A program made the translations under genes and the position numbers. The notes below the pieces were generated by a model, which was given only the letters and a program-made list of their open reading frames with translations, was not told the DNA's origin and did no database searches. This document shows, one piece after another, positions 9,938 through 21,560 of a stretch of DNA of 64,000 nucleotides. Every line of letters starts with the position of its first letter. Position 1 is the first letter of the stretch. This DNA is from Escherichia coli. Lineage in GTDB: Bacteria; Pseudomonadota; Gammaproteobacteria; Enterobacterales; Enterobacteriaceae. The stretch lies in assembly GCF_048403405.1 (NCBI RefSeq), contig NZ_CP183129.1; one strand, given 5' to 3'.

Positions 9938-9955
9938 TTGTATTGTGATCGGTAA

Positions 9956-10031
9956 GCCGGATAAGGCGCTCGCGCCGCATCCGGCAACGATGCCGACTGC
10001 CTGATGCGACGCTGACCGCGTCTTATCAGGC
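9956..10031. repeat. REP (repetitive extragenic palindrome) pair
   Basis: gccggataaggcgctcgcgccgcatccggc and gcctgatgcgacgc...gcgtcttatcaggc read directly between phnA and phnB. Confidence 0.75.
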
Positions 10032-10096
10032 TTCCCTCTCATCTGTATAAATTTCGAACTACACTTAAGTGGCTTCTCTTAACTGAGGTCACCATC

Positions 10097-12502: not shown

Positions 12503-12516
12503 TGTGCTCGATCGAT

Positions 12517-12603
12517 CCCCTCTCCCTTGAGGGAGAGGGTTAGGGTGAGGGGGAAATGCGCACGCTGATGCCCTCACCCCGGCCCTCTCCCACAGGGAGA
12601 GGG
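12517..12603. repeat. GC-rich nested palindromic intergenic repeat (three hairpin modules)
   Basis: ccctctccc-ttga-gggagaggg (12518-12539), gggtgaggg...ccctcaccc (12543-12580), ccctctccc-aca-gggagaggg (12583-12603) read directly between phnD and phnE. Confidence 0.6.
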
Positions 12604-12627
12604 AGAAAACATTAAACGGAGCAATAT

Positions 12628-16251: not shown

Positions 16252-17089
16252 TCTGAGCGGCTACAACTTTGCCTACCTCGACGAGCAGACCAAACGCATG
16301 ATCCGCCGCGCCATCTTAAAAGCGGTGGCGATCCCCGGTTATCAGGTGCCGTTTGGCGGGCGCGAGATGCCGATGCCGTACGGCTGGGGAACTGGTGGTA
16401 TCCAGCTTACCGCCAGCGTGATTGGCGAAAGCGACGTGTTGAAGGTGATTGACCAGGGTGCGGATGACACCACCAACGCCGTGTCGATTCGCAACTTCTT
16501 TAAGCGCGTGACCGGGGTAAACACCACTGAACGTACGGACGATGCGACGCTTATCCAGACGCGTCACCGCATCCCCGAAACGCCGCTGACTGAAGATCAG
16601 ATCATTATCTTCCAGGTGCCAATCCCGGAACCGCTGCGCTTTATCGAGCCGCGCGAAACGGAGACCCGCACTATGCACGCGCTGGAGGAGTACGGCGTGA
16701 TGCAGGTGAAACTGTATGAAGATATCGCCCGCTTCGGTCATATCGCCACCACTTATGCCTATCCGGTGAAGGTGAACGGGCGCTACGTGATGGACCCGTC
16801 GCCGATCCCGAAATTCGATAACCCGAAAATGGACATGATGCCCGCCCTGCAGCTGTTCGGCGCAGGGCGCGAGAAGCGCATCTATGCGGTGCCGCCGTTT
16901 ACCCGCGTGGAAAGCCTCGATTTCGACGATCACCCGTTCACCGTTCAGCAGTGGAATGAGCCATGCGCCATCTGCGGATCGACCCACAGCTATCTTGATG
17001 AAGTGGTGCTGGATGACGCCGGAAACCGCATGTTTGTCTGCTCCGATACCGATTATTGCCGCCAACAGAGCGAGGCAAAAAACCAATGA
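16244..17089 (+). CDS. phnJ: C-P lyase catalytic subunit (radical SAM-type 4Cys cluster)
   Basis: ORF 16055-17089 trimmed to ATG 16244 (MANLSGYNFAYLDEQ...), 281 aa; C-terminal CxxC...C...C cysteine cluster. Confidence 0.9.
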   Translation: MANLSGYNFAYLDEQTKRMIRRAILKAVAIPGYQVPFGGREMPMPYGWGTGGIQLTASVIGESDVLKVIDQGADDTTNAVSIRNFFKRVTGVNTTERTDDATLIQTRHRIPETPLTEDQIIIFQVPIPEPLRFIEPRETETRTMHALEEYGVMQVKLYEDIARFGHIATTYAYPVKVNGRYVMDPSPIPKFDNPKMDMMPALQLFGAGREKRIYAVPPFTRVESLDFDDHPFTVQQWNEPCAICGSTHSYLDEVVLDDAGNRMFVCSDTDYCRQQSEAKNQ

Positions 17090-17844
17090 ATCAACCGTTA
17101 CTTTCGGTCAATAACCTGACCCACCTTTACGCGCCGGGCAAAGGCTTTAGCGATGTCTCTTTTGATTTATGGCCGGGGGAAGTGCTGGGCATCGTCGGGG
17201 AATCCGGCTCCGGGAAGACCACGCTGCTGAAATCAATCTCCGCGCGCCTGACGCCGCAGCAGGGGGAGATTCGCTATGAAAACCGCTCCCTCTATGGCAT
17301 GAGCGAAGCCGACCGCCGCCGTTTACTGCGCACCGAATGGGGCGTGGTACATCAGCATCCGCTCGACGGCCTGCGCCGCCAGGTGTCGGCAGGCGGCAAT
17401 ATCGGCGAGCGGCTGATGGCGACCGGGGCGCGTCATTACGGCGATATTCGCGCCACCGCGCAGAAGTGGCTGGAAGAGGTGGAGATTCCCGCTAACCGGA
17501 TCGACGACCTGCCAACCACCTTTTCCGGCGGCATGCAGCAGCGTTTGCAGATTGCCCGCAACCTGGTGACGCATCCGAAGCTGGTGTTTATGGACGAACC
17601 AACCGGCGGGCTGGATGTGTCGGTGCAGGCGCGCCTGCTCGACCTGCTGCGCGGCCTGGTGGTGGAGCTGAACCTGGCGGTGGTGATTGTCACCCACGAT
17701 TTAGGCGTCGCCCGCCTGCTGGCGGACCGTTTGCTGGTGATGAAGCAGGGGCAAGTAGTGGAGAGTGGGTTAACCGACCGCGTGCTCGACGACCCTCACC
17801 ATCCATATACCCAGCTGCTGGTGTCATCGGTTTTGCAGAATTGA
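17086..17844 (+). CDS. phnK: C-P lyase accessory ABC-type ATPase
   Basis: ORF trimmed to ATG 17086 ([11 protein letters not shown]...), 252 aa; Walker [10 protein letters not shown]. Confidence 0.9.
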
Positions 17845-17850
17845 GCCAGT

Positions 17851-17933
17851 GCCGGATACGGCGTAAACGCCTTATCCGGCCGACAAATGCGCTCCCCGTA
17901 GGTCGGATAAGACGCGTCAGCGTCGCATCCGAC
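17851..17933. repeat. REP pair inside the phn operon (phnK-phnL intercistronic)
   Basis: gccggatacggcgtaaacgccttatccggc and ggtcggataagacgcgtcagcgtcgcatccgac read directly. Confidence 0.75.
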
Positions 17934-17954
17934 ACCCGAACCACGAGGCGAAAA

Positions 17955-18635
17955 ATGATTAACGTACAAAACGTCAGTAAAACCTTCATCCTGCACCAGC
18001 AAAACGGCGTGCGCCTGCCCGTCTTACAACGTGCCTCGCTCACCGTCAACGCAGGCGAATGCGTGGTGCTTCACGGCCACTCCGGCAGCGGCAAATCAAC
18101 TCTGCTGCGCTCGCTGTACGCCAACTATCTGCCCGATGAAGGGCAAATCCAGATCAAACATGGTGACGAGTGGGTAGACCTGGTCACTGCGCCAGCGCGC
18201 AAAGTGGTGGAAATCCGCAAAACCACTGTCGGCTGGGTGAGCCAGTTTCTGCGCGTCATCCCGCGTATTTCGGCACTGGAAGTGGTGATGCAGCCTCTGC
18301 TCGATACCGGCGTACCGCGTGAAGCCTGCGCCGCTAAAGCCGCCCGATTACTGACGCGCCTGAACGTGCCTGAGCGCCTGTGGCACCTTGCGCCATCAAC
18401 CTTCTCCGGCGGTGAACAACAGCGCGTCAACATCGCCCGCGGCTTTATCGTCGACTACCCTATTCTGCTGCTCGACGAACCCACCGCCTCGCTGGACGCC
18501 AAAAACAGCGCCGCGGTGGTGGAACTAATTCGCGAAGCCAAAGCCCGTGGCGCGGCCATCGTCGGCATTTTCCATGACGAAGCCGTACGCAATGACGTCG
18601 CCGACCGCCTGCACCCAATGGGAGCCTCTTCATGA
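17955..18635 (+). CDS. phnL: C-P lyase accessory ABC-type ATPase
   Basis: ORF trimmed to ATG 17955 ([11 protein letters not shown]...), 226 aa; Walker [10 protein letters not shown]. Confidence 0.9.
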
Positions 18636-20747: not shown

Positions 20748-21506
20748 ATGAGCCTGACCCTCACACTTACTGGCACTGGCGGCGCACAGGGCGTTCCCGC
20801 ATGGGGCTGTGAGTGCGCGGCCTGCGCCAGAGCGCGGCGCTCATCGCAGTATCGCCGCCAGCCATGCAGCGGCGTCGTGAAGTTTAACGACGCGATCACC
20901 CTGATCGACGCCGGGCTGCACGATCTCGCCGATCGCTGGTCGCCCGGATCGTTCCAGCAGTTTTTGCTGACGCACTACCATATGGATCACGTGCAGGGGC
21001 TGTTTCCGCTGCGCTGGGGCGTGGGCGATTCGATCCCGATCTACGGCCCGCCGGATGAACAGGGCTGCGACGATCTGTTTAAACATCCGGGCCTGCTTGA
21101 TTTCAGCCACACGATGGAACCGTTTGTGGTGTTTGATTTACAGGGGTTACAGGTCACGCCCCTGCCGCTCAACCACTCAAAACTGACCTTCGGTTATCTG
21201 CTGGAAACGGCACACAGCCTGGTGGCGTGGCTGTCTGACACCGCTGGCTTGCCGGAAAAAACGCTGAAATTTTTACGCAATAATCAGCCGCAGGTAATGG
21301 TGATTGATTGCAGCCATCCGCCGCGTGCGGATGCGCCGCGTAATCACTGTGATTTAAACACCGTGCTGGCGCTGAATGAGGTTATCCGCTCGCCACGGGT
21401 GATTCTGACGCATATCAGCCACCAGTTTGATGCGTGGCTGATGGAAAACGCACTGCCGTCGGGGTTTGAGGCGGGGTTTGATGGGATGGAGATTGGGGTG
21501 GCGTGA
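20748..21506 (+). CDS. phnP: metallo-beta-lactamase-fold phosphodiesterase
   Basis: ORF 20709-21506 trimmed to ATG 20748 ([12 protein letters not shown]...), 252 aa; HxHxDH motif (THYHMDH). Confidence 0.9.
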
Positions 21507-21560
21507 TGGGATGGAGATTGGGGTGGCGTGATGGGATGGAGATTGGGGTGGCGTGATGGG
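21480..21560. repeat. tandem direct repeat, 25-bp unit gatgggatggagattggggtggcgt x3 plus a partial copy
   Basis: Units at 21480-21504, 21505-21529, 21530-21554 are identical; the first unit encodes the last phnP codons and the stop TGA 21504-21506. Confidence 0.9.

Follow-up and report, generated by a model that had tools for sequence, protein, structure and literature searches.

The REP pair in the phnK-phnL spacer of the Escherichia coli phn operon and the RNA step at this junction

The reading frames of the E. coli phn operon from phnF to phnP follow each other so closely that they overlap or abut, with one exception: phnK and phnL are separated by a spacer occupied by two palindromic repeats, and theirs is the only junction in this part of the operon without translational coupling. 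The question raised by this locus is what these repeats are, and whether they influence the expression of the genes on their two sides. The operon lies on the + strand of the analyzed window, a stretch of 64,000 nt from E. coli contig NZ_CP183129.1. The distances between consecutive genes, in the order from phnF to phnP, are 0, -4, -1, -8, -4, +110, -4, -1, -14 and +1 nt (with the same ORF ends in the window). According to the initial annotation of this DNA, overlapping or abutting neighbors are the rule for nearly all phn genes; this is correct for phnF-phnP and does not extend to the whole operon, as the phnC-phnD spacer is 24 nt long and the phnD-phnE spacer is 125 nt long (12503-12627). 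This second long spacer had been missed. The phnC-phnD spacer and the phnE-phnF spacer (20 nt) are both repeat-free. The features of the phnK-phnL junction are listed in Table 1, together with the RNA levels considered below.

Table 1. Features of the phnK-phnL junction and RNA levels of phn genes. Positions are those of the window; RNA levels are counts/kb in MG1655 at low phosphate (PMC10294691 Table S1).
Feature	Position	Strand	RNA, counts/kb	Remarks
phnC			41k	
phnD			140k	
phnF			15.1k	
phnG			15.7k	
phnH			11.2k	
phnI			14.8k	
phnJ			20.3k	
phnK CDS	17086..17844	+	29.6k	stop TGA 17842-17844; translation; PhnK annotation in matching E. coli records
phnK-phnL intercistronic spacer	17845..17954	+		110 nt; identical length in K-12
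REP unit 1, y-type	17850..17884	-		inverted copy on + strand and mRNA, TGCCGGATACGGCGTAAACGCCTTATCCGGCCGAC; stem 17851-17880
Tail-to-tail linker	17885..17897			AAATGCGCTCCCC; 13 nt, short S-type; between REP units 1 and 2
REP unit 2, z2-type	17898..17934	+		5' GTAG 17898-17901; stem 17902-17933; 2x2 internal mismatch
phnL Shine-Dalgarno GAGG	17945..17948	+		6 nt 5' of ATG; outside the hairpins
phnL CDS	17955..18635	+	3.6k	ATG 17955; PhnL annotation in matching records
C-rich, G-poor stretch at phnL start	17967..18044	+		C/G ratio 2.14
phnM			7.0k	
phnN			9.9k	
phnO			5.8k	
phnP			2.2k	

The element is, beyond reasonable doubt, a REP pair of the E. coli family. Unit 1 agrees with the Y consensus at 30 of 32 positions and unit 2 agrees with the Z2 core at 23 of 24, on opposite strands. 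All the REP features examined are found here: imperfect palindromes of 35 and 37 nt, within the 30-40 nt of E. coli REPs, that can form hairpins, with stem mismatches, the GTAG tetranucleotide, inverted orientation of the units, extragenic position and high copy number. In particular, the 93-nt stretch is found at no fewer than 40 places per genome in 5409 E. coli records, and other REPs are present in the window at 9956-10031, 32729-32766, 43196-43231 and 61727-61758. In the published description, REPs carry a conserved GTAG tetranucleotide on the 5' side of the palindrome foot, and E. coli units are of the y, z1 and z2 types (PMC3333891). The presence of two REP units in this spacer, proposed in the initial annotation for 17851-17933, is thereby borne out, as both palindromic stems match this interval.

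Each unit has arms of 14 nt, with complementarity of 93% in unit 1 and 86% in unit 2, and the first stem begins 6 nt past the phnK stop codon. Folded as RNA, unit 1 yields -21.4 kcal/mol (z = -5.5), unit 2 yields -21.3 kcal/mol (z = -5.8), and the whole spacer yields -48.4 kcal/mol (z = -4.8), with none of 200 shuffled sequences folding as well. The same 110-nt pair, with three substitutions relative to the window, is present in MG1655, whose RefSeq feature table lists no repeat features. Hence a REP pair at phnK-phnL is already known in kind from the long-sequenced K-12 operon.

By its sequence, the pair is a single BIME-2-type unit, that is, y and z2 units inverted and joined tail to tail. 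BIME-2 elements combine y and z2 in inverted orientation with a short linker S and typically occur in multiple tandem copies (PMC3333891), whereas the phnK-phnL element is a single pair both in the window and in K-12, and its y unit in the window strain has no GTAG and only one mismatch. BIME-1 (or RIP, consisting of z1 and y with a long L linker that carries an IHF site) is excluded by the 13-nt linker and by the presence of z2 without z1. The linker is identical in all eight E. coli strains compared and resembles the tail-to-tail linkers AAATTCCCGCACCCTCC of the K-12 REP325 array.

The two changes in the y unit of the window strain are located at position 17882, which is G (T in K-12), so that the tail reads CGAC instead of CTAC (GTCG on the - strand, while unit 2 retains GTAG), and at position 17858, which is A (G in K-12), so that a 1x1 stem mismatch is left where K-12 has two mismatched bases. 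The GTAG of the y unit is kept in K-12 and in five of seven other aligned strains, and strain NR329 shares both changes (G-to-A at 17858 and T-to-G at 17882). TnpA-REP needs both GTAG and the stem mismatch for binding in vitro (PMC3333891), and the y unit of the window strain, having lost GTAG and one of the two mismatched bases, is therefore probably no longer mobilizable. With its one stem mismatch this unit also folds slightly more stably.

The same y and z2 hairpins form REP325/naRNA4 (y-l-z2), located upstream of phn between yjdM and yjdN, 8 kb away in the window. Unlike REP325/naRNA4, the phnK-phnL units are joined tail to tail and not by the l linker, and they are part of an mRNA, not a separate RNA. 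Assignment of the spacer to naRNA4 (Rfam RF02564) was rejected, as its matches score 41, 39 and 29.5 bits, below the gathering score of 59.5. The window itself contains a single naRNA4 unit (9955-10032, y-l-z2, 87.5 bits) between yjdM and yjdN, while REP325 of K-12 consists of six tandem units. The K-12 units have been reported to yield HU-binding nucleoid RNAs; the window strain would make at most one naRNA4.

Comparison of complete E. coli genomes shows that the occupant of the phnK-phnL spacer is variable. The REP pair is found in 4841 of 5426 genomes, a 176-nt inverted BoxC pair occupies the identical slot in 546 (about 10%, e.g. O104:H4), and a form with three REPs is present in two. All these alleles have in common the TGA left flank and the right flank ...GAACCACGAGGCGAAAAATG. 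The BoxC (PIT, TMECO) repeats, which are intrastrand-triplex motifs, resemble the REP pair in filling the same slot, from the phnK stop to the phnL ribosome-binding site, in forming inverted pairs and in being highly structured, but they belong to an unrelated sequence family (CCCTCTCCC...GGGAGAGGGTTAGGGTGAGGGG); BoxC/PIT elements have been reported to lack terminator and promoter activity (PMC4666352). Since about a tenth of E. coli genomes carry such a pair instead of REPs, with no activity of either kind reported for it, the REP sequence itself is dispensable at phnK-phnL, which counts against the RNA-level reading proposed below.

The phnD-phnE spacer is occupied as well. In the window, two BoxC/TMECO triplex motifs lie there in inverted orientation (12519-12553 and 12571-12604, consensus from PMC4666352), and in K-12 the same slot is filled by a head-to-head REP pair, z2 and y. 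About 1244 of the 5426 genomes have this BoxC-type phnD-phnE spacer. The phn operon thus has two internal repeat slots, phnD-phnE and phnK-phnL. In the K-12 RefSeq record the start of the phnE1 pseudogene is annotated inside the REPs, and hence the spacer appears to be 54 nt long. At the distal end of the operon, a perfect 25-bp tandem repeat (21479-21560, 3.3 copies of TGATGGGATGGAGATTGGGGTGGCG, one copy in K-12) spans the phnP stop codon and leaves the protein unchanged, as the first copy supplies the stop; the BoxC element found 3' of phnP in K-12 is a remnant in the window strain.

The REP-allele spacer is about five times less variable than its surroundings: in eight E. coli strains, a small and non-randomly chosen sample of differing divergence, 6 of 110 spacer sites segregate, versus 24 of 96 flanking third codon positions (Fisher p = 1e-4). 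The six variable sites are confined to a loop, a mismatched stem position, the tetranucleotide of the tail and the flanks, and none of them affects a paired stem base (chance 0.03). The low diversity of the spacer fits either structural selection or gene conversion among REP copies.

Among 79 species that have a PhnL relative, phnK and phnL overlap in three only, the median gap being 25 nt, while -4 or -11 is the usual distance at J-K and L-M. Where close relatives lack an insert (Leclercia, Citrobacter FP75, Cedecea neteri, Hafnia and Shimwellia, among others), the gap is 7-9 nt, with the arrangement TGA-GAGGC(G/C)AAC-ATG, so that GAGGC(G/C)AA(C/A) directly follows the phnK stop. Palindromic repeats are found in the K-L gap of 9 of 17 sampled Enterobacteriaceae species loci, in addition to E. 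coli. Kluyvera, Lelliottia, strain RIT691, two Enterobacter species, Citrobacter werkmanii, Pluralibacter and Cedecea sulfonylureivorans have REPs of a type of their own genus at this place, and the Pseudocitrobacter record has four BoxC-like copies. In all tabulated occupied spacers the first helix starts 0-14 nt past the stop codon, except for Lelliottia, where the distance is 29 nt. Because several Enterobacteriaceae loci share the layout iREP-CTAC / GTAG-REP and a similar flank from the REP to the ribosome-binding site, a single old insertion followed by turnover appears as plausible as repeated independent insertions.

The spacer with the four BoxC-like copies belongs to Pseudocitrobacter faecalis DSM 27453 (1203-1500 of the record; 298 nt, predicted fold -156 kcal/mol), where the phnJ-K and phnL-M DNA is 92% identical to the window. 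Large palindromic repeats are also found in the K-L spacers of Pelagibacterium, Devosia and Pseudomonas sp. UBA2684 (210, 253 and 116 nt, respectively; folds of -61 to -128 kcal/mol), and some of these spacers of distant Proteobacteria contain CCCCTC...GAGGGG motifs reminiscent of BoxC.

The initial annotation suggested that the REP pair could decouple the expression of phnLMNOP from that of phnC-K, in which case RNA coverage should not be uniform across the spacer. Published RNA-seq data compare MG1655 with a phoB deletion strain at 0.2 mM phosphate and are given as DESeq2-normalized counts (PMC10294691 Table S1); here, the per-gene counts were divided by gene length (one K-12 dataset, two replicates). 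Coverage is not uniform: from phnK (29.6k counts/kb) to phnL (3.6k) RNA falls 8.2-fold in both replicates, whereas no other pair of neighbors in phnF-phnP differs by more than 2.7-fold. As these are per-gene counts, the boundary is resolved to the gene level only. A 9.3-fold fall is observed in K-12 from phnD to phnF, across a repeat-bearing spacer with the REP pair 3' of phnD, though this step is confounded by the phnE frameshift. The RNA level rises toward each repeat junction (from phnC to phnD and from phnH to phnK) and collapses after it. The suggested decoupling fits the step at phnK-phnL, as a correlation, but the upstream part of the proposal does not stand, since phnC-K is divided by the step between phnD and phnF and is not one block. 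Moreover, phnL has less RNA than phnM and phnN, so a property of the phnL segment itself also plays a part. The supplement of another study (PMC7657598) provides log fold-changes only, from very low counts and with NA p-values, and is uninformative on this point.

Our preferred reading, to which we assign a probability of roughly 0.55, is that the REP pair acts at the RNA level, as a barrier to 3' exonucleases and as an uncoupler inside the phn mRNA. The pair is transcribed within the PhoB-driven phnC-P mRNA and forms two stable hairpins right behind the phnK stop. These hairpins would block 3'-to-5' exonucleases, and decay fragments ending at the REPs (phnF-K, chiefly phnJ-K) would outlast the phnL-P part. 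The structured 110-nt gap would uncouple the translation of phnL from that of phnK, so that RNase E, and possibly Rho, could reach the phnL start. A single promoter would thereby supply phnG-K message at several times the level of phnL-P message. Decay intermediates protected at the 3' end are favored because RNA climbs from phnH/phnI to phnK, and pure termination gives no such climb. The anatomy of the pair, its family, its conservation and the RNA step in K-12 are direct observations, while the causal role of the REPs in this step, and the route, are what we infer. The general premise, also present in the initial annotation, that REPs inside operons can stabilize upstream mRNA or cause partial termination is well established, as stabilization of upstream mRNA and attenuation of transcription are both reviewed in PMC3333891. 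In the searched literature, several older phn papers being outside its scope, we found no experiment (deletion or half-life measurement) on the role of the REP pair in phn.

Similar arrangements are known at malE-malF, hisJ-hisQ and pstS-pstC, where intercistronic REP hairpins likewise interrupt a polycistronic mRNA whose upstream segment greatly exceeds the downstream one. The REPs of these systems have reportedly been tested by deletion and half-life measurement, unlike the phnK-phnL pair, which is known from RNA counts and sequence. Another difference is that the upstream gene in these systems encodes a periplasmic binding protein, while PhnK is a cytoplasmic ATPase subunit; the repeat junction phnD-phnE is a closer formal parallel to them than phnK-phnL. 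At low phosphate, pstS has 239k and pstC 39.5k counts (PMC10294691 Table S1).

The RNA step could also be produced during transcription, if Rho loaded on the C-rich phnL start behind an untranslated structured gap and stopped some of the polymerases. Such attenuation as the main effect is possible but doubtful. It would account for the 8-fold fall at the junction, and BIME-associated attenuation is known (Espeli et al. 2001, as cited in PMC3333891). The C-rich, G-poor stretch 17967-18044 has the fourth highest C/G ratio among non-overlapping 78-nt windows of the operon (98.7th percentile), but comparable C-rich windows exist elsewhere in phn, and as a candidate Rho-loading stretch it is a weak lead. 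Any termination here would be factor-dependent, because a T-run is missing behind both hairpins and a scan of the spacer found no intrinsic terminator. Attenuation alone explains neither the rise from phnH to phnK nor the excess of phnM and phnN over phnL. Since cells cannot use phosphonates without phnL and phnM, read-through must be substantial. The main rival to the RNA-level reading is that the pair is a neutral passenger, as REPs, being mobile and non-autonomous, persist only in non-coding DNA, and K-L is the sole junction in phnF-P with free bases; the RNA step would then be caused by phnL itself, for example by weak translation or RNase E sites. We consider this unlikely, although several observations agree with it: the rarity of K-L overlaps across species as compared with J-K and L-M, the interchangeable occupants (REP pair, three REPs or BoxC pair in E. 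coli, genus-own REPs elsewhere), the fact that Leclercia, Citrobacter FP75 and Cedecea neteri cope with short gaps and no hairpin, and the level of phnL RNA, lower than that of phnM and phnN. On the other hand, a passenger would not be expected to sit exactly at the biggest RNA step of phnF-P, with a climb toward it, nor to be less variable than nearby third codon positions with its stems untouched, and the phnC-phnD and phnE-phnF spacers are free yet empty.

A REP less than 16 nt past a stop codon lowers the amount of the upstream protein (Liang, Rudd and Deutscher 2015, as summarized in PMC12306157), and this effect, absent from the initial annotation, applies at phnK, where the first stem lies well inside that distance. 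The hairpin would stall the terminating ribosome, tmRNA would act, and the yield of PhnK would fall. The position of the first helix in occupied spacers of other species, with the exception of Lelliottia, is consistent with this brake, but such proximity is forced by an ancestral gap of about 9 nt, and we regard the brake as rather improbable; no PhnK protein data were found in the searched literature. It could operate alongside the RNA-level reading, which we still prefer, rather than in its place; both Rho attenuation and reduced PhnK translation may add to the RNA-level effect. A broader proposal, that the K-L junction is a selected punctuation site, kept occupied in enterobacteria, where interchangeable repeats (REP/BIME of the host's type, or BoxC) set the ratio of the core C-P lyase subunits PhnG-K to PhnL and the downstream enzymes, acting via 3'-end protection, translational uncoupling and ribosome stalling, and likewise at phnD-phnE, seems distinctly improbable at present. 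Still less probable is a role at the DNA level, with the y-z2 unit serving as a DNA gyrase target that relieves supercoils of a heavily induced 11-kb operon: y and z2 with a short linker are indeed of the BIME-2 type (PMC3333891), and BIME-2 elements have been reported as gyrase targets (Espeli and Boccard 1997, as cited in PMC3333891), but BIME-2 is usually tandem and here forms a single pair, and 546 genomes have the BoxC pair instead. Least credible of all is a function encoded in the spacer, be it a promoter driving phnL-P, a naRNA-like small RNA or a longer N-terminus of PhnL. The phnL frame is open back to TTG 17841, and there are the sub-threshold Rfam naRNA4 matches of 29-41 bits, to be compared with 87.5 bits of the genuine unit in the window. 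An internal phnL promoter was rejected: the spacer has no promoter-like site, and with phoB deleted phnL is down to about 6 counts (PMC10294691 Table S1), which argues that the spacer contains no constitutive promoter. An extension from 17841 was rejected too, since in the relatives with a 9-nt gap PhnL homologues begin with MINVQNVS right after GAGG, at the same Met directly behind the ribosome-binding site. The TTG codon overlaps the phnK stop, and the absence of stops in the phnL frame across 17841-17954 is probably a coincidence of REP composition.

The presence of a textbook repeat in a long-sequenced operon is in itself no news. Still, phn is a clean natural test case, with one PhoB promoter, 14 genes and two slots occupied by REP or BoxC alleles, and the published RNA data show an 8-9-fold drop at each repeat slot. 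Useful by-products of the analysis are the connection with available RNA-seq data and the picture of two slots with two alleles. If the repeats cause the steps, they would set the supply of C-P lyase subunits (PhnGHIJK versus PhnL), which would be relevant to reconstituting or engineering phosphonate and glyphosate degradation, and the natural REP and BoxC alleles would allow for a direct comparison of the effects of the two repeat families on mRNA.
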